From: Eledone cirrhosa
Lineage: Eukaryota
NCBI GenBank assembly: GCA_964016885.1
Contig: OZ024752.1
Coordinates: 47,802,001 to 47,866,000, forward strand
Length of the DNA stretch: 64,000 bases
Direction of reading: 5' to 3'
Positions 4,328 through 53,979 of the stretch are shown here, piece after piece. The notes under the pieces were generated by a model. That model did not search any database and had not been told where the DNA came from. It worked only from the letters and a program-made list of their open reading frames with translations. Position numbers and translations under genes: made by a program. Numbering within the stretch: the stretch's first letter is position 1; every line of letters begins with the position of its first letter.

Positions 4328-4491
4328 GGTGGCTGCCAACTCGTTTTCGAGTACGGCCACTACTTTATATCCATGTAGGAGAACCCCCACCGATGCGCTG
4401 AACGAGTGTGACTTTTTAGTCCAGCCAGCGACTTGAAAACTCTGGTACAAACACTACACTTGTGACAATTATTGACACATAGTGCTGGGCC
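4328..4491 (-). mobile_element. 5'-truncated 3' end of a LINE (probably RTE clade) encoding a terminal C2H2 zinc finger plus a short 3' UTR
   Basis: Minus frame 4491-4360 reads GPALCVNNCHKCSVCTRVFKSLAGLKSHTRSAHRWGFSYMDIK*; followed by the hairpin ACTCG-AAAA-CGAGT and then (AT)n. Confidence 0.65.
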
Positions 4492-4960
4492 CATATACAT
4501 ACATACATTCATACATACACAGACAGACACACACATATATATATATATATATATAGATGTGTGTGTGTGTTCATTTTTGTGTGTTTGTGCGTGGCGTTAT
4601 ATTGCAGTATAATCTTTTATTTTTATTATCGTCGCCTTCAACCACTTTATGTGTATTGAGGTAAGAAGGTTGCAATAAAGCCGCAAATCTCTTAACTGTG
4701 ACTTTCCAGTGACACCACCTGGCCAGCTAATTGTATTTGTTTATGTCCTGCATAAACACTGTGTTCTGTAACTCAGCAGTTCAAAGAGGGAAAATTGGTG
4801 GAATACCATACTTGTAAATAACATGGAAAAGCATGATGATGATAAACTTCGAAGTCACTGTCACCTTTTTCTTTTGAAAATAAAACTTATAATCTGCTCA
4901 GATGTATTGAGTTCTCAACAGTTAATGTTTGACCATTCTATGTACACATGTGCATAAAAA

Positions 4961-5336: not shown

Positions 5337-5653
5337 TATACTATATATATATATATATATATATATAATAGCACCACTGACGATGTTGCAGATGTGCAAC
5401 AAAAGAAATTTGATAGCCTATATATATATATATATTTATATCTGTATTTTTAACCATTGGTCAATCAATGATAAACATTGATTGCTAAATAAATTAACTA
5501 TGGAGATATAAAAGATACAGAAGTGAAAACCAACCAAACACTGAGTGTGTTCTGTTATTATTTTTGGCAATATTATTACAACAATATGACCCTCCTCAAG
5601 TATAACAATACATATACACACACATATATATATATATATACATATATATATAT

Positions 5654-5996
5654 CTCAGTTGGATGTGCAATGTCAATGTACGTGAACAACCAAGCATGGA
5701 CGAGTTGAGAGAGAAACTGTGTTTAAGAGGGATAAGTTGTAGTGTGCAGGAGAGAAGACTGCGATGGTATGGACATGTGATGCACATGGAGGATGACTGC
5801 TGGGTAAAGAAGTGCCAAGAAATCCCAGTAGAAGAAAAACGCAGTAGAAGAAGACCACAAAAATCATGGGCTCAGATCGCTGAAGGTCACGGAGGAGATG
5901 ACAAAGGACCGTGGCAAGTGGAGAGATGCTGTGGTGAATGGTGAATAGAACCCGTCCCACCCTTGCAAGCAGGGAAAAGTGGACGTAAAATGATGA

Positions 5997-9400: not shown

Positions 9401-9747
9401 GTGTATGTATATATGTATATATGTAGTGCAGAAAGATTTGTAGGGGTATAGATCATAAAATTATATAGTCTATGATTAAACTGAACTTTTTACATTATGA
9501 TATAATGTAAAAAACCGACAAAGGACTTGTAAGTTGTCTATCTAGATTGATGCTCCATTGGTCAACTATAGCAATAGATCAACTGAAAGGAATTATAATA
9601 TCGAAGTTCTAGTAGAAGTATTAAATTATTTTAAATATTTATTAAAATGTAAGCAAAGAAGAAGAGATGAAAACCATTATCTTTAGAAGATATAATACAT
9701 TTTGTCTGAATAGCAGAGATGTGAAATCACCAGTATCAAACACACAA

Positions 9748-10450
9748 ATCCCGCAGAGGTTAACTTTGCCTTTCATCCTTACGGGGTCAATAAAATAAAG
9801 TACCAGTAATGTACTGGGATAATTGCTGGCCTTGTGCCAAACGTAGAAACAATTATTATTTTGGCAGTATCGGTAGAAGGTCGGGCGCCATACTTTGCAG
9901 CATAGAGTTACGGTCCTTTATGGTCTGAGTTCAAATCCCGCCAAGTTTAACTTTGCCTTTCATCCTTACGGAGTCGATAAAATAAAGTACCAGTAATGTA
10001 CTGGGATAATTGCTGGCCTTGTGCCAAACGTAGAAACAATTATTATTTTGGCAGTATCGGTAGAAGGTCGGGCGCCATACTTTGCAGCATAGAGTTACGG
10101 CCCTTTATGGTCTGAGTTCAAATCCCGCCAAGTTTAACTTTGCCTTTCATCCTTACGGAGTCGATAAAATAAAGTACCAGTAATGTACTGGGATAATTGC
10201 TGGCCTTGTGCCAAACATAGAAACAATTATTATACACACATAGGGCAGTGGATTGGCAGAATTGGTAGAGCATCGGACAATATGCTTAGCGGCAGAGAGT
10301 TACGTTCTAAGTTCAAATCCTGCCGAGCTTAACTTTGCCTTTCATTGTTACCGGGTTGATAAAATAAAGTACCAGTAATGCACTGGGGTAGATTTAATCG
10401 ATTTTTCCCAAACATTTTTGGCCTTGTGCCTAAATCAGATACCATTATTG
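9748..10450 (+). mobile_element. Tandemly duplicated SINE family B copies plus an older variant
   Basis: Near-identical ~187-bp units ending agaaacaattattat. Confidence 0.85.
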
Positions 10451-14558: not shown

Positions 14559-14725
14559 CATATATATATATATAATAATAAGGGTTGACGGACCCAGCAT
14601 ATTTATCAATGCCAGTACCGGTTGTATCTCAGCACACTCAATAGGCAATGTAGGATACATTACCAGAGTATACACATAGTTATTTGCCTCAACACAACAC
14701 ACGTAAAACGGGTGCCTATAAGGTT

Positions 14726-14835
14726 CCCGGACTCGAGTTTCTGCCGCACTAATGCAGCAGTAAGGTGCACTGCACCATCTGTCTGCATATATTATGCAAC
14801 AAGGCACAATCGGCTTATGCGGCTTCATCAGCGGG
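14726..14835 (-). ncRNA. Type I hammerhead-ribozyme-like motif with an extended stem II
   Basis: CCCG CUGAUGA A GCCGCA...UGCGGC A GAAAC UCGA GUC CGGG. Confidence 0.7.
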
Positions 14836-15089
14836 TATCGCCTAATCAATAACCAATCGATCGACAGAATCCAAATATATATATATATATATATAAAATA
14901 AAATAAAATAAAATAAATAAGTCAAATGTTTAAAATTTAGCTTCAGGCAGTCTGAATTAGTATGGTATAGACAAGTACATATGTTGTTGAGGTGTATAAC
15001 TTTGTCAATACTCTGATATGCCCAGTTCCTGGTTGGGTTGTTATTTCACTGAGGAACTGGAATCATATATATATATAAAATCTCTATAT

Positions 15090-20063: not shown

Positions 20064-20223
20064 ATAGGAACAAGTAAGACCCCGACGGCTGAGCTCAAGC
20101 CGTTTCGATGGCTAAATTCAGCCGTCGGGGTCTTACTTGTTCCTATTACCCACTCTACTACCCTAAGTATTGAGTACTTTGGTGCGTTATGGTCCACTTG
20201 GTTCCTTACCACATTTCCTTCGT

Positions 20224-30111: not shown

Positions 30112-30689
30112 CATATGTGTGTGTGTGTGTCTGCACGTGTGCACACATACACACATACACACACATTTTTACATACATATGTCTTGCTAATGATTGGTGA
30201 CTCTATAGATGTTACTAGCTACATACATATCTTGAATCAATACAAGATTATTATTTTACTGATAAGAATTCTAAAATTGTATTTATTCTGAGGCGCGGCC
30301 ATTTATATTGCAGACGGTGGAACAAAAAGAAACAATGATGAAATAAACACACTAACATATTCCAATATTTGGGAGAGATTTGCAATCAGAAACAGTCGGC
30401 AGAGAACTTTGGTGTCTTTGAGTTTTATAAACTTAATGTTAAAGTAATTCTTTGTCATTAGAATTATGAGCCATACACTACTACATTTTGCTGAAAATAC
30501 TAATGAACTTCTGTTGGTTTTAACAACTATTGCTTGGGAAGAAACCCCACTTCGGCTGCTTGCATTCATCATTGTATTCTTTCGGTCATTGCCCAAGATT
30601 TCTGAGTATATGGCGGCGGATTGGCAGTATCGGTAGAGGATCGGACGCCATGCTTTGCAGCATAGAGTTAGGGCCCTTTACTTTCTGAG

Positions 30690-30845
30690 TACCTACCTCC
30701 CTTTTTCTGATTACAGAATGCTGGAGCTGGTAGATTACTGCACCTACTCCTGCAATTCTTGAACTTAATTCAGCCTCCTGCTTTCCACCACTCATGAATA
30801 CGGCCCCAACAAAAGTTTGAACTTCTCTACCTGCTTCAGTGGAAC
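30690..30845 (-). mobile_element. Decayed RTE (Expander/Rex3-like) reverse-transcriptase fragment
   Basis: With one frameshift reads PLKQVEKFK..GAVFMSGGKQEAELSSRIAGVGAVIYQLQHSVIRKREV, resembling the RTE region QVEEFKYLG...EIDRRIGAA. Confidence 0.6.
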
Positions 30846-31731
30846 TCCAGTTACATGTAGAGTGCACTGCGCAGGATCCTTGAGTGTCTGTTTTCGCAGC
30901 ACTGATTTTCATTCCAGCCATCATGCAGCACTCTATGGCTGGATGCCCTTCCTTATGCCAACCACATCATGTACAGTGTGTGCTGGGTGCTTTTTGCCTT
31001 GATGCCTACACAACCACTTTACAGTGTCAACTAGGTGCTTTTTGTCATGACACCTACATGACAACTTTACATATTTTGAATTTGATACAGAGAGAGAGAG
31101 AGAGAGAGAGAGAGCCACACACACAAATATGTTTAATGACCCAGTGACCGTAAGTTAAACTCCGTTCTACTCGGTGACTCAAAAAACTGCAACAACAGCG
31201 TCACAAAACTATGAACACAAAAGTTTTATTCTATTTCACAAATGGAAAGACATCAAAAAGGAAGGAAGTCACAACAACAACAACACCACCACCACCAACA
31301 ACAACAACGACGACAAATACCAAACAACAACCAAAACAAAACTAGGGAAATGAACACCTTCACTCCCTCCCCATCCATTCCTGAAAACAAAAATCAACCA
31401 AAAGGAAAGAGATACAAACACAAGACAAGAGATGGAGATGGAGAAAAAGAGAGAAAAATAATAACACCATTTGCAACTATTATTATTATTATTTATACAA
31501 AGACCACTAGAATTGTGATTAATTGTTATGTAACTCTAACAATGGCACCATTATGCAAAAGAGCTTTTGCTTTCTCCTGTCTTCCTGAATCTTGTTTGCC
31601 ACTTAACTAATTCTAGAATTTCTATACGACACAACATTTCTAGTATTGTTCACTTATTCATATAAACCATTGGAAAAATAACAAAACAAAAAAAAAAACA
31701 AACAAACTTTCTATTCATCTCTTTCACTCAT

Positions 31732-32419: not shown

Positions 32420-32421
32420 AT

Positions 32422-32492
<71 letters not shown>

Positions 32493-32553
32493 CACATATA
32501 CCCATGCTTAAAGATGTTAAACAATGATGATGATATATATCACACACACACAC

Positions 32554-32584
<31 letters not shown>

Positions 32585-32656
32585 CACATATACCCATGCT
32601 TAAAGATGTTAAACGATGATGATATATATCACACACACGCACACACACACACACGC

Positions 32657-32710
<54 letters not shown>

Positions 32711-32779
32711 CCATGCTTAAAGATGTTAAACGATGATGATGATATATATCACACACACACACACACACACGCACACACG

Positions 32780-32826
<47 letters not shown>

Positions 32827-33251
32827 GTTAAAGTGTACATCTACATATGTATACGGAAGTATTAGTATGCATATAAATACACACATGTATACATATGTAC
32901 ATGTACTCAGCTTTTCACTAGACACTTTACAGTGAGTGTCAGCTAGTCTGTATGTAACCACACAGGCGGACCGGGTTTTAGAGTCATACGAGTTTTCAAG
33001 GAAACACATTTCCTCTATTCTCCAGAGGGCCAGACAGGAATATTGGACTAGTTTCGATGTTATTAGATCTCATCAGCAATATTTATCCATCTTCCGGCTT
33101 CTCTGGAGAATTGTAAAAGCACATATCGTTATATGCTTTTTCTATGAAAATTAGTAGTGGGTAGACTAATTTGCATAGAACGTGATATATATATATATAT
33201 ATACACATATACCCATGCTTAAAGATGTTAAACGATGATGATGATATATAT

Positions 33252-33285
<34 letters not shown>

Positions 33286-33462
33286 CATACATATATATAC
33301 ACACATATACCCATGCTTAAAGATGTTAAACGATGATGATGATATATATCACACACACACACACACGCACACACACATACATATATATATATATACACAC
33401 ACATATACCCATGCTGGCATGGAAAATAGACATTAAATGATGACAATGATGATGATGATGAT
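32420..33462. repeat. Tandem repeat of a shortened SINE/RTE tail plus CA/TA tracts, interrupted by a unique island (~32822-33184)
   Basis: cccatgcttaaagatgttaaac(g/a)atgatgat recurs five times. Confidence 0.8.
33017..33111 (-). ncRNA. Type I hammerhead ribozyme with a canonical core
   Basis: AAUAUUG CUGAUGA GAU cuaauaac AUC GAAAC ua GUC CAAUAUU, plus distal stem I pairing AUUCUCCAGAG/CUCUGGAGAAU. Confidence 0.85.
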
Positions 33463-33927: not shown

Positions 33928-34194
33928 CTATACTAACACCTCATTGTAAAGGAAGTACTTAACTATCAAAGATATCTATATCTGAAGATAACGAAGGAAG
34001 TGTGGTAAGGAACCAGGTGGACCATAACGCACCAGAGTAATCAATACTTGGGGTAGTAGAGTGGGTAATAGGAAATTGTTCAAGACCCCGACGGCAGAGC
34101 TCAAGCCGTTTCGATGGCTATTTCTGGACTATATCTGAAGATATAGATATCTTTGACAGTTAAGTAATTCCTTTACAATGAGGTGTCAGCATAG
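33928..34194. mobile_element. Fold-back element (~63-bp arms) enclosing a segment shared with 20064-20226
   Basis: 33928-33990 versus 34132-34194 inverted; interior includes the GAAACGGC..GCCGUC half-hammerhead on the minus strand. Confidence 0.65.
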
Positions 34195-45187: not shown

Positions 45188-45929
45188 TGTTTATGCAGGA
45201 GTGGCAAACCACATATTTCATAGCCATTAGAAAAAAGCAAAAATGAATGCTTCCTCTTCGAAAGAGGGATAACTCAAGAAGAAGAACAACAACAAGAAAC
45301 AACAACAATAGCAGCAAGGTTTCTATTTCACTAATCAATGCTTTAGACCAGCAAATAAAGTTATAATTCTGATATTAAATTTTTGTTAATGAGTTAGTTT
45401 CACCTTTAATTACATGAAGTCTATAAGATAAAAAAAAGAAAATAACAACAACAACAACAACAAACACAATAAACAATCAAACAGCAATACGAAACATATA
45501 GCAAAACAATGCTGTTGATTAGAGTTTGGGATCTTTTGTTCTATCTAATTTAAGGGAGAAATTTTATTTATACATATGATAATAAAATTGTAACAGGTAA
45601 TATTGTATAGAAAGATAATCTTGAATTTAATTCTAAATATAATAAATATTCATACAAGCATATTAGAAATGTAATGGAAAGGAAACATTAAAGTGAAAGA
45701 ATGGTTTAATAGACTTGAAATTGAATAGAAATACATTAACAACCCACCACCCTCACCCCGGCATCTATCATCATCATTGTCCCCCTCCTCTTCTTCTTCC
45801 TTTTTACATCTGTTTCTCCATCCCCATGCTTGCATGGGTTGGATAGGTGTTTTTCAGCATGGCTTCCATCTACTTATTGCATAGAATATATATAAGATCT
45901 TCGATCATGCATTTCTTTGTCATAACATC

Positions 45930-46630
45930 ATTGTTTGTACTTTTGGCACAAGGCCAGCAATTATCCCAGTGCATTACTGGTACTTTATTTTATCGACCCT
46001 GTAAGGATGAAAGGCAAAGTTAACCTTGGCGGGATTTGAACTCAGATCATAAAGGGACGTAACTCTATGCTTCAAAGCATGGTGTCCGACTCTAAAATAA
46101 TTGTTTCTACATTTGGCACGAGGCCAGCAAATACCCCAGTACATTACTGGTACTTTATTTTATCGACCCTGTAAGGATGAAAGGCAAAGTTAACCTCGGC
46201 GGGATTTGAACTCAGATCATAAAGGGCCGTAACTCTATGCTTCAAAGCATGGTGTCCGACTCTAAAATAATTGTTTCTACATTTGGCACGAGGCCAGCAA
46301 ATACCCCAGTACATTACTGGTACTTTATTTTATCGACCCTGTAAGGATGAAAGGCAAAGTTAACCTCGGCGGGATTTGAACTCAGATCATAAAAAGACGT
46401 AACTCTATGCTTCAAAGCATGGTGTCCGACTCTAAAATAATTGTTTCTACATTTGGCACGAGGCCAGCAAATACCCCAGTACATTACTGGTACTTTATTT
46501 TCTCGACCCCGTAAGGATGAAAGGCAAAGTTAACCTCAGCGGGATTTGAACTCAGAATGGCAGGGGCCGTAACTCTATGCTGCAAAGCATGGCGTCCAAC
46601 CCTCTACTGATACTGCCAATCCACCGCCCT
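45930..46630 (-). mobile_element. Four tandem SINE family B units (~180 bp)
   Basis: Near-identical units sharing the junction ccgactctaaaataattgtttctac. Confidence 0.9.
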
Positions 46631-47098: not shown

Positions 47099-47294
47099 GT
47101 AATAAACAACATAAGTCAAGTATTCCATTTACCAAAGGATTCACGAAGACAGACTAGCCCAACAGAGATGTCTGAAATTGCTCATCAGATTAAATTTTCA
47201 TTCTGATGAGTGATTTCAGACATCTCTGTTGAGCTCGTCTGTCTTCGTGAAACCTTTGGTAAATGGAATAATTGACTTGTGTTGTTTATTACAT
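47097..47294. repeat. Inverted repeat (93-bp arms, 12-bp spacer) whose right arm holds a type I hammerhead
   Basis: 47097-47189 versus 47202-47294. Confidence 0.85.
47196..47268 (+). ncRNA. Type I hammerhead-ribozyme-like motif
   Basis: UUUCAUU CUGAUGA GUGA..CAGAC..GUCUG..UCGU GAAACC uuu GGUA AAUGGAA. Confidence 0.7.
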
Positions 47295-49039: not shown

Positions 49040-49754
49040 CTGAAAAGTGTCAAGGGCATTGCCTTTCCTCCCACCAGTCTTGGAAGCCCTGAAAAGTGTC
49101 AAAGGCACTGCCTTTCCTCCCATGAGTCATGGAAGCCCTGAAAAGTGTCAAGGGCACTGCCTTTCCTCCCACCAGTCTTGGAAGCCCTGAAAAGTGTCAA
49201 AGGCACTGCCTTTCCTCCCACCAGTCTTGGAAGCCCTGAAAAGTGTCAAGGGCACTGCCTTTCCTCCCACCAGTCATGGAAGCCCTGAAAAGTGTCAAGG
49301 GCACTGCCTTTCCTCCCACCAGTCATGGAAGCCCTGAAAAGTGTCAAGGGCACTGCCTTTCCTCCCACCAGTCTTGGAAGCCCTGAAAAGTGTCAAGGGC
49401 ACTGCCTTTCCTCCCACCAGTCTTGGAAGCCCTGAAAAGTGTCAAAGGCACTGCCTTTCCTCCCACCAGTCATGGAAGCCCTGAAAAGTGTCAAGGGCAC
49501 TGCCTTTCCTCCCACCAGTCATGGAAGCCCTGAAAAGTGTCAAGGGCACTGCCTTTCCTCCCACCAGTCTTGGAAGCCCTGAAAAGTGTCAAAGGCACTG
49601 CCTTTCCTCCCATCAGTCATGGAAGCCCTGAAAAGTGTCAAGGGCACTGCCTTTCCTCCCACCAGTCATGGAAGCCCTGAAAAGTGTCAAGGGCACTGCC
49701 TTTCCTCCCACCAGTCATGGAAGCCCTGAAAAGTGTCAAGGGCACTGCCTTTCC
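49040..49754. repeat. 49-bp minisatellite, ~14.6 copies
   Basis: ctgaaaagtgtcaagggcactgcctttcctcccaccagtc(a/t)tggaagcc. Confidence 0.95.
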
Positions 49755-51065: not shown

Positions 51066-52180
51066 GAGAATTCCTAGAGTAGGAACTCTTCTTACAGGGT
51101 GAGACAACCACAGAGAAAGAATGAGAATTCCTAGAGTAGGAACTCTTCTTACAAGGTGAGACAACCACAAAGAAAGAATGAGAATTCCTAGAGTAGGAAC
51201 TCTTCTTACAAGGTGAGACAACCACAGAGAAAGAATGAGAATTCCTAGAGTAGGAACTCTTCTTACAAGGTGAGACAACCACAAAGAAAGAATGAGAATT
51301 CCTAGAGTAGGAACTCTTCTTACAAGGTGAGACAGCCACAAAGAAAGAATGAGAATTCCTAGAGTAGGAACTCTTCTTACAAGGTGAGACAACCACAGAG
51401 AAAGAATGAGAATTCCTAGAGTAGGAACTCTTCTTACAAGGTGAGACAACCACAAAGAAAGAATGAGAATTCCTAGAGTAGGAACTCTTCTTACAAGGTG
51501 AGACAGCCACAAAGAAAGAATGAGAATTCCTAGAGTAGGAACTCTTCTTACAAGGTGAGACAACCACAGAGAAAGAATGAGAATTCCTAGAGTAGGAACT
51601 CTTCTTACAAGGTGAGACAACCACAAAGAAAGAATGAGAATTCCTAGAGTAGGAACTCTTCTTACAAGGTGAGACAGCCACAAAGAAAGAATGAGAATTC
51701 CTAGAGTAGGAACTCTTCTTACAAGGTGAGACAACCACAGAGAAAGAATGAGAATTCCTAGAGTAGGAACTCTTCTTACAAGGTGAGACAACCACAAAGA
51801 AAGAATGAGAATTCCTAGAGTAGGAACTCTTCTTACAAGGTGAGACAGCCACAGAGAAAGAATGAGAATTCCTAGAGTAGGAACTCTTCTTACAAGGTGA
51901 GACAACCACAGAGAAAGAATGAGAATTCCTAGAGTAGGAACTCTTCTTACAAGGTGAGACAACCACAAAGAAAGAATGAGAATTCCTAGAGTAGGAACTC
52001 TTCTTACAAGGTGAGACAGCCACAAAGAAAGAATGAGAATTCCTAGAGTAGGAACTCTTCTTACAAGGTGAGACAACCACAGAGAAAGAATGAGAATTCC
52101 TAGAGTAGGAACTCTTCTTACAAGGTGAGACAACCACAGAGAAAGAATGAGAATTCCTAGAGTAGGAACTCTTCTTACAA
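51066..52180. repeat. 57-bp minisatellite, ~19.5 copies, with a 3-unit higher-order pattern
   Basis: gagaattcctagagtaggaactcttcttacaaggtgagaca(a/g)ccaca(g/a)agaaagaat. Confidence 0.95.
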
Positions 52181-53979
52181 GTTATGACAACAGCATTCTG
52201 GAGAAGGGTAGATGCTGTTCTTGTTGTCATTTCTAGTGCCCCCGTTGATTCAATCAAGGGAACTGCCTACTGATGAAACTAACGTGTAAGTCACTGAGCA
52301 TTCCACAGGCATGTTCACCTTTAACTTTTGCCAGCTGAATGAACTGGAGCATTGTGAAATATAGTGTGTCTTGCTCAAGGACATAACTCAAAACCTGGTC
52401 TGGGACTCAAACTTTCAACATTATGATCATAAGCAAAGCACCCTAACCTGTAAACCATGTCTTCACTTACATGGATGAATAAGTAACTTTTAAAGATGAA
52501 GAATACATAATCATAAGGATACATGATCATAAGCTTAATATCGAAAACCAGGCTTTGTAGTGGTGGGGTAGCAATAAATCTAACATAGTTAAACCAAATA
52601 AGATCTTAAGAAATAGTTAAACTAAAAAGATAAAGAGTAGAAGACTTGAGAACAACAGTATCAAATATAGATATAAGAATATCACCCAAGTTTATAGTAA
52701 ACTCTATAATGTGGTAGTGCTGGTACCATGATAAAATGCACCCATAAGGGTTGGCATTAGGAAGGGCATCTAGCCATAGAAACCATGCCAAGTATGGAAC
52801 ATGACAAAAACATGTTTCTCTGACCTGTCTAGCATCGGACAATGATGCTCCAGCTAACCCATACTAGATTGGAAAGTGGAGATAAGAATAATGCCGATGG
52901 TAAAGTTCCTGTATTGATTAATGGAAGGTAGCTTAGTTTAGTTTCTGTGGAGTAGATCAGTAGAAATAAGTTAAGAGGGAAACAACAAACTATTGGAAAA
53001 AGAAGAAAAATAAAAACCTAAAAAAACAATTCAAAAAGAGGAGAAATTTAATGAAATATAATTAAAATAAAGTAAAAAAATATAATATAAAATATAATTT
53101 AAAAAAATTAATTTTAAAAAGCAAAGAGCAAGAGAAAAGTTAAGGATAATCTATATCGAAATATCAGTGAACATGTAGAGATGGAAACATTTAATAATAA
53201 TAATAATAAATGTATAGTTTATTTTATTTCCACCTCTCCTTCCTCATAATAGTAAACTGTGTATCTTGAAGAACACAAAATGGAAATTAACAACAAATAT
53301 GTAATTGACCATTACTTTTGACAGCTGGTTCAATGGACTTTCTGGAGAAGGAGCAAAATATCTTAAAAGACAACAACAACAACTACAACAATTTAGAATA
53401 TTAATTACCATGACCTTAAATATGAAATTTTCTGACATTTTTAAGAAAATTGAATGTCTTGCTCCTTCATTGTCAATATTGTTGTTGTTGTTATTTAATT
53501 TGTTTTGTCATTATTCTAATTATTGTAATGGTATTTACACTATTTACAAACTTCTTATAGTAGTTCTTTATTAGTTGTGTATGCAGTTAGTATTTAACAT
53601 AAGACAGATTGATTTGGAACAGTGTCATCTGAAAGAGGGTGATAAAAAAATGTCCTCGTTTTCCTGATTAGATTTTCCAGTTCAATTCCTGAAATACCAT
53701 ATATAATTATTGTCTATAAAGCCACACTTTTTTTTTTCCATTAAAATACGACATCAAAGATTAACTTCGGACTCATCTACTTTTCCCCACAAAACAACAA
53801 TGTAAAATGTATGGTACATTGAAAGTTACTCAAAGAATCATAACACAACATACAGAATTAACCAGGGTGTGATGCAGTAAGCAACGCTTACCTTTCTTCT
53901 TAAAAATAATATTAAAAACAAAAAACACTGATAAAATGTAACTCTTGAAACTTTCACAGTTATATAAAATGTCCAGTGA

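Follow-up and report, generated by a model that had tools for sequence, protein, structure and literature searches.

What kind of element placed a hammerhead ribozyme motif in the genome of Eledone cirrhosa, and could this copy still cut? The motif has an intact core on the minus strand of a 64,000-nt stretch of contig OZ024752.1 (the window; positions below count from its first base), where it occupies 33017..33111 within a single non-coding insert. The window, at 32% GC, contains 218 tandem-repeat rows and no long coding frame outside simple repeats, and its interspersed repeats are, we presume, similar to those of octopus genomes. Frames at 5606-5944 (+) and 30586-30966 (-) read like what we take to be worn 3' parts of RTE-type LINEs, and neither has a Pfam match. 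A single C2H2 zinc finger match at 4363-4596 (-) lies below the Pfam cut-off (22.8 bits, E 1.2e-4) and could be an exon or a fragment. Homogeneous minisatellite arrays at 49040-49754, 51066-52181, 45923-46597, and 9745-10233 have periods of 49, 57, 170, and 187 with 94-97% matches; a scan found no hammerhead core in these four arrays. The window contains no tRNA, and scanning it for bacterial promoters gave nothing informative.

Type I hammerheads are common in animal repeats, the genomes of coral, mussel, and axolotl each having thousands of them (PMC7229834), and the giant squid annotation includes 235 Hammerhead_1 loci (PMC6962438), so that hammerheads have already been annotated in a cephalopod genome. 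We found no description of a cephalopod retrozyme or of the present family in the literature searched, in which subscription papers were thinly covered and Repbase was outside the scope.

A type I hammerhead on the minus strand

The motif consists of the following parts, all on the minus strand:

33017..33111, minus strand: type I hammerhead whose helix I extends through internal loops to a 6-bp middle helix and an 11-bp outer helix; from sequence, Rfam alignment, fold, and descriptor scan
33083-33077 (33077..33083), minus strand: helix I, 5' strand AAUAUUG; six well-supported pairs, the seventh weak
33076-33070 (33070..33076), minus strand: core box CUGAUGA; stem II directly next, no unpaired H
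33056..33069, minus strand: 14-nt helix II region in which three pairs and a mismatched C·C enclose a 6-nt loop, with a non-standard pair flagged in the HH9 alignment
33047..33055, minus strand: GAAA box (33055-33052) and palindromic helix III ACUAGU (33052-33047); from sequence and fold
33045..33046, minus strand: predicted cleavage site after C17 of GUC, by hammerhead numbering
33045-33039 (33039..33045), minus strand: helix I, 3' strand CAAUAUU; from sequence and pair probabilities

Checked against the sequence, every helix and core base falls where an earlier, sequence-only reading of this DNA had placed it. Six pairs of helix I have probabilities of 0.71-0.89 and the seventh 0.15. The extension of this helix through internal loops, also proposed earlier, is present in the minimum-energy fold of the 95-nt stretch, which contains both GCCGGA/UCUGGC and the 11-bp outer helix (-31.9 kcal/mol, z -4.3; equaled by 0 of 200 shuffles); in the HH9-type register, distal helix I reaches a probability of only 0.01-0.02, and the distal register is ambiguous. 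Stem II pairs GAU (33069-33067) with AUC (33058-33056) at a probability of about 0.48. These pairs had been recognized before, together with an 8-nt loop, which on the HH9 alignment is better read as a fourth, mismatched C·C position closing a 6-nt loop. As a monomer, helix III is a single A-U pair under a palindromic tetraloop, and between two copies it would extend to 6 bp. With C17 at 33046, the cut is predicted between 33046 and 33045, in agreement with the position suggested earlier.

A descriptor scan of both strands of the window returned two loose matches, and only the motif at 33017..33111 has a palindromic helix III. In 300 block-shuffled windows, a stem I of at least 7 bp with a stem II of at least 3 bp occurred 0.0033 times per window, and with a palindromic helix III in addition it did not occur in any of the 300. 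The other loose match, on the plus strand at 47203, has a 7-bp stem I, a 39-nt helix II region, and a non-palindromic helix III ending in UA; it lies near the chance rate of the loose pattern, 0.08 per window.

An Rfam search, which the sequence-only reading had proposed, gave a mixed result: no model reaches its gathering score anywhere in the window, and the best hammerhead match in a 701-nt search, Hammerhead_HH9 (RF02275), is full-length (model positions 1-77) and scores 28.2 bits (E 7.3e-5), where the cut-off is 52. The alignment contains the 6-bp proximal helix I, the internal loop, a helix II region of 14 nt whose loop is closed by C·C, and ACUAGU as helix III. The same proximal helix I, internal loop, helix II region length, and 6-nt loop are found in Hammerhead_1 (RF00163); loop 2 reads UAAUAA here versus CAAAAA in HH9 and CAAAUA in Hammerhead_1, with fitting sizes. 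Besides its score, the motif differs from HH9 in a helix III cut down to the 6-nt palindrome. miRNA matches in a relaxed Rfam search were rejected as simple-repeat artifacts.

These results confirm that the hammerhead motif is real. That it arose by chance inside an ordinary hairpin-rich insertion is hardly credible: although it scores below all Rfam gathering thresholds and both strands of the insert fold, the rarity of such motifs in shuffled windows and the position-for-position fit of its helix lengths to two Rfam models argue against this.

In metagenomes, a pattern close to the motif matched 0 loci. A looser pattern matched three, which we rejected as analogues rather than homologues (they share only a 12-38-nt core region with the island) and did not use for covariation. 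These unrelated contigs, L001 475-517 (-), L002 292-327 (+), and L003 1501-1536 (+), have hammerhead-like motifs ending in ACUAGU, that of L001 scoring 26.5 bits on Hammerhead_1. The ACUAGU palindrome is a design that recurs. A distant blastn search of phage records gave no match.

Helix sizes of the canonical animal class

Two classes of animal type I hammerhead are relevant here. Canonical motifs have a helix I of 6 bp, a helix II of 4 bp, and a palindromic loop on a helix III of 1-2 bp, while the minimal hammerheads (min-HHRs) of Penelope-like elements (PLEs) have a helix II of 7-8 bp, a helix I of 4-5 bp, a loop 1 that is ill defined, and a base left unpaired after CUGANGA, giving the consensus CUGANGAH (PMC4209133). 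In the same account, a type I hammerhead with a palindromic helix III is the form found in genomic repeats.

The motif has the canonical core (CUGAUGA, GAAA, and GUC as the NUH triplet), a 6-bp helix I whose extension through the internal loop aligns with HH9, and ACUAGU as helix III. Only helix II departs from the canonical 4 bp, with three pairs and C·C at the fourth position, although its total of 14 nt is that of both Rfam models. No unpaired base separates the core box from stem II, as G10.1 directly follows A9, and the combination of a long helix II with a short helix I is likewise absent (3 bp and 6-7 bp, the latter with a long extension). The "minimal," Penelope-type label given in the sequence-only reading must therefore be dropped, since all three min-HHR traits are missing and the helices have the sizes reported for canonical animal type I hammerheads (PMC4209133), whereas its assignment to type I with a weak palindromic helix III, ACUAGU, is borne out. 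Apart from the stem II mismatch, the motif is, judged by its sequence, a canonical animal type I hammerhead. The dimer-type cleavage suggested along with it fits as well.

An insert interrupting a (TA)n tract

The surroundings of the motif comprise the following features:

32420..33460, no strand: host tandem array of six units, each a short head with TA and TG microsatellites, flanking the insert on either side; from repeat scan and comparison of the heads
32793..32821, no strand: (TA)n target tract on the 3' side of the element, 14 units; from sequence
32822..33184, minus strand: whole insert, 363 bp, 37% GC, non-coding, a predicted hairpin chain around one hammerhead; from array-unit split, junctions, and fold
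32822..33016, minus strand: 3' part of the insert, with short hairpins, then an AT-rich long hairpin, and TT at the (TA)n junction; from fold
33115..33179, minus strand: on the 5' side of the hammerhead, two more hairpins, of 14 and 11 pairs; from the fold of 33112-33184
33185..33203, no strand: (TA)n target tract on the 5' side of the element, 9 units; from sequence

The insert splits one unit of the host array. Four of the array heads are alike in text apart from their CAT number, one has a one-base difference, and the first is more diverged; the insert-bearing unit measures 502 bp versus 89-122 bp for the other five. The junctions and this comparison set sharp ends at 33184 and 32822, replacing the limits of ~32900-33185 proposed earlier. 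The insert is younger than the homogeneous local array, and its clean position within a (TA)n tract, overlooked in the sequence-only reading, bears on its mode of movement. Both flanks are (TA)n, although one site does not by itself make a bias. Insertion into such a tract means that any target duplication would be hidden in the microsatellite. The TA units on the two sides sum to 23 versus 7, 4, 14, 10, and 10 in the five intact units, an excess that is weakly compatible with a hidden duplication, as (TA)n tracts change length easily.

The insert is strongly self-paired on the hammerhead strand. The fold of 32910-33184 has z -7.9 on the minus strand (0 of 40 shuffles as good) versus z -3.7 on the plus strand, and another test of the insert gave z -5.8, with 63% of bases paired in the predicted RNA. 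The part 5' of the hammerhead (33112-33184) contributes z -6.2 (0 of 100 shuffles as good), while the complex 3' part alone (32910-33016) is not significantly structured (z -1.1). G·U pairs provide no strand signal (6 of 84 on the minus strand, 8 of 88 on the plus strand), and circular folding, at -112.1 versus -116.8 for the linear form, adds no long-range pairing.

There is no tandem copy at the locus, no terminal repeat on the insert, and no second copy in the 64-kb window. The earlier statement that the island is non-coding agrees with the lack of a Pfam match for one scanned frame of the insert. No reverse transcriptase (RT) or GIY-YIG match was found by Pfam in 145 of the window's 236 candidate frames (complexity-filtered, at least 48 aa; the longest and most complex were scanned, excluding those over the insert's 3' end). 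The island also has a 13-nt match to five interspersed-repeat copies, which was rejected as chance, with no extension and E 0.59; the copies that carry this 13-mer, at 90, 10930, 16064, 26179, and 47900, belong to a SINE-like repeat.

Neighboring elements share the 3' junction

The window contains two further, unrelated families of short elements with PLE traits. One is a 300-bp, (TA)n-flanked element at 14575-14874 (-) with its own hammerhead (core 14831, C17 14730), which has an unpaired A after the core, a 4-bp helix I, and an 8-nt palindromic helix III. Its helix II has a 7-bp base around a branched insert and spans 83 nt, the large insert being unusual. It scores 13.9 bits on Rfam Hammerhead_1 and its fold has z -2.9. 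A relaxed hammerhead scan of the window matched this motif and the one at 33017..33111, two matches versus 0.01 per shuffled window in 500. The element is unrelated to the 363-bp insert, and its hammerhead shows PLE-type traits.

The other family has copies at 20068-20223 (+) and about 33991-34127 (-), 90% alike over 108 bp, and includes a GAAAC-containing stretch that may be the 3' half of a hammerhead. The first copy, set within (TA)n, combines an inverted 5' piece with a tail of ~80 bp; the second has a 15-bp flanking direct repeat and lies outside a microsatellite. This layout resembles that of Penelope 3'-end insertions, in which inverted pieces of pseudo-LTRs (pLTRs) with a tail are typical (PMC3846280). 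Around the second copy, 33928-33990 and 34132-34194 form a 63-bp inverted repeat (90%), probably a MITE-like palindrome struck at its center.

All four mini-element insertions examined have TT followed by AT (TT|AT) at the element's 3' side. (TA)n is a listed target of the Naiad and Hydra PLE families, three of them from Octopus (PMC8557442 File S1), and a microsatellite bias is mentioned for Neptune (PMC8557442).

Occurrence beyond the window

A 280-base part of the insert was sampled as 25 words against 23 listed sequencing runs. Some of the words occur in 15 of the 23 runs, and at least 5 of the 25 in 11 of them, which cover 7 studies and 7 organism labels with shares from 0.72 to 0.20; when the possible source organism is set aside, at least 5 of the 25 words are still found in 6 studies and 6 organism labels. 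The shares imply about 95-99% identity if the differences are spread over the whole stretch, and may instead reflect one part of it. Four of the shares were small (0.08-0.12, organisms H-K) and, like four indexed runs at 0.00, were not counted as evidence. Among the runs listed, no RNA run contains sampled words. The island is thus unique, as first described, within the window only.

Given that the insert is younger than the homogeneous array and that its words nevertheless occur under many organism labels, we infer that it would more simply belong to a multi-copy family than represent one orthologous locus; the labels may be those of close relatives.

Predicted activity of this copy

We expect a minus-strand read-through transcript of this copy to cut weakly at best as a monomer and better with a second copy in trans. 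In the folding model, efficient monomer activity is disfavored by the one-pair helix III, by the stem II probability of about 0.48, and by a competing pairing of the core CUG with UAG of helix III at about 0.49. A strand-swapped double hammerhead has a two-strand energy of -65.8 versus -63.8 for two monomers, while the best cofold is an inactive extended duplex at -71.0, lower than the double hammerhead; as core and tertiary contributions are left out of the energy model, this comparison is not decisive. The C·C in stem II, the competing core pairing, and the lack of a second hammerhead nearby all count against the self-cleavage that the sequence-only reading had considered possible for this copy. 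With one hammerhead only at the locus, no unit-length RNA would be released and no circle would form by itself.

The axolotl hammerhead HHR_Amex1, which has one pair under a palindromic tetraloop, is reported to be 6% cut in 1 h as a monomer and to cut much better as a dimer (PMC7229834); helix III of the insert matches this ribozyme as described. In Xenopus, 1 of 9 predicted dimers cut in vitro (bioRxiv 2026.07.22.740005).

Origin of the insert

We favor, with modest confidence, the reading of the insert as a retrozyme-type monomer placed in (TA)n by a TA-targeting Penelope-like enzyme. Source copies elsewhere would be tandem and transcribed, and their RNA would be cut after GUC as double hammerheads formed through the ACUAGU palindrome, yielding unit-length RNA. 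A Penelope-like RT/endonuclease would then nick (TA)n and copy this RNA in. The reading draws on the 3' junction, the (TA)n target, the helix sizes, the length, GC, and self-pairing of the insert, and the occurrence of its words under several labels. Against it, a tandem arrangement defines retrozymes, yet the insert is single at the locus and in the window; (TA)n is abundant in the window (233 runs) and changes length easily; and the TT|AT junction comprises only two informative letters.

Retrozyme units are described as tandem, 150-450 bp long, and below 50% GC, with canonical motifs, and measure 350-390 bp in mussel (PMC7229834). In length, GC, self-pairing, and the absence of coding sequence and LTRs, the insert stays within these limits (about 150-450 bp, GC <50%), but a hammerhead in at least two consecutive units is found neither at the locus nor elsewhere in the window. 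Hence, we state that the insert works like a non-LTR retrozyme unit and withhold full membership, given the single unit at the locus. The earlier description, a monomer of a retrozyme or Penelope-like family, fits the insert.

Among known systems, the insert resembles metazoan non-LTR retrozymes (axolotl Rtz_331/HHR_Amex1 and the mussel repeats; PMC7229834) in carrying a canonical type I hammerhead whose helix III is one pair beneath a palindromic tetraloop, in unit length, in its low GC, in lacking a coding frame, and in its self-paired fold. It differs in being a single unit in (TA)n with no array at the locus, in the C·C of stem II, and in being known here from DNA alone. Dispersed monomers of retrozyme families do occur, and retrozymes are related to pLTRs (bioRxiv 2026.07.22.740005). 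Retrozymes that stand solo or as monomers and derive from PLE pLTRs (Li, Clavereau and Pollet 2026, bioRxiv 10.64898/2026.07.22.740005) share with the insert a dispersed unit-length copy, one type I hammerhead, and proposed PLE mobilization. The species in that work are 31 vertebrates, 3 insects, and a coral, and the parts of it available give no target-site preference; the insert, for its part, comes without a parent dimer or PLE.

A real if rather unlikely alternative is that the insert is a solo pLTR, the 3' end of a 5'-truncated autonomous PLE with a canonical-looking hammerhead, in which case neither a retrozyme array nor a circle would be involved. The (TA)n target and shared junction would follow directly from PLE integration; most PLE insertions are 5'-truncated with one terminal repeat kept (bioRxiv 2026.07.22.740005), a small palindromic helix III is known from the hammerheads of some animal PLEs (PMC4209133), and two PLE-type mini-elements lie in the window. 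Like the hammerheads of PLE pLTRs (PMC4209133; Naiad, Neptune, and Hydra, PMC8557442), that of the insert combines a type I core and palindromic helix III with a (TA)n target and presence in a cephalopod. It lacks, however, the three min-HHR traits that the hammerhead at 14575-14874 shows, having no unpaired base after CUGANGA, a short helix II, and a long, structured helix I. A terminal repeat attached to an RT and GIY-YIG frame is likewise missing: no such frame was found among the 145 of 236 scanned, and the insert has array sequence to its left and right. In PMC8557442 File S2, the hammerhead listed for Octopus Hydra-1 is a different motif, and three 10-nt hammerhead motifs gave 0 matches in the Naiad, Chlamys, and Hydra consensus files of that supplement, where line breaks may hide matches. 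In the published view, retrozyme and pLTR readings form a continuum (bioRxiv 2026.07.22.740005).

All readings besides the retrozyme-type monomer and the solo pLTR are quite unlikely even when taken together. An improbable one is a host-conserved, domesticated ribozyme that cuts a host transcript at one locus across species, as with the amniote intronic motifs HH9 and HH10. HH9 is the best Rfam match, near-identical words occur under 7 organism labels, and the core is intact; nevertheless, the insert lies with sharp ends inside one unit of a young-looking array, scores 28.2 versus 52 bits, has a helix III too weak for a monomer, and has no host exon identified nearby in the frames scanned. Size and strong self-pairing would also suit an infectious circular RNA, viroid-like or delta-like, that was copied into DNA; this is very improbable, as only one polarity has a hammerhead, the fold is a chain of local hairpins instead of a rod, and type I with a palindromic helix III is the genomic-repeat form (PMC4209133).

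To return to the retrozyme-type monomer, one more copy of a type I hammerhead is unsurprising; the value of this one lies in a clean case: its ends are sharp, the array around it can be dated, its target is (TA)n, and PLE-type neighbors have the same junction. PLEs are regarded as the likely but unproven movers of retrozymes (PMC7761336), and the autonomous mover of animal non-LTR retrozymes has so far only been proposed in the sources available (bioRxiv 2026.07.22.740005, PMC7229834, PMC7761336). A family such as this one makes the proposal testable through target sites and 3' ends. We entertain, as a doubtful possibility, that a retrozyme-like family common to several related species spreads without tandem arrays, its single units being scattered and directed to (TA)n by a Penelope-like endonuclease, in which case the dimer-type hammerhead would need to act in trans. 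If this were true, the TT|AT junction shared with the PLE ends nearby would serve as a genomic signature of the enzyme responsible for moving animal retrozymes.
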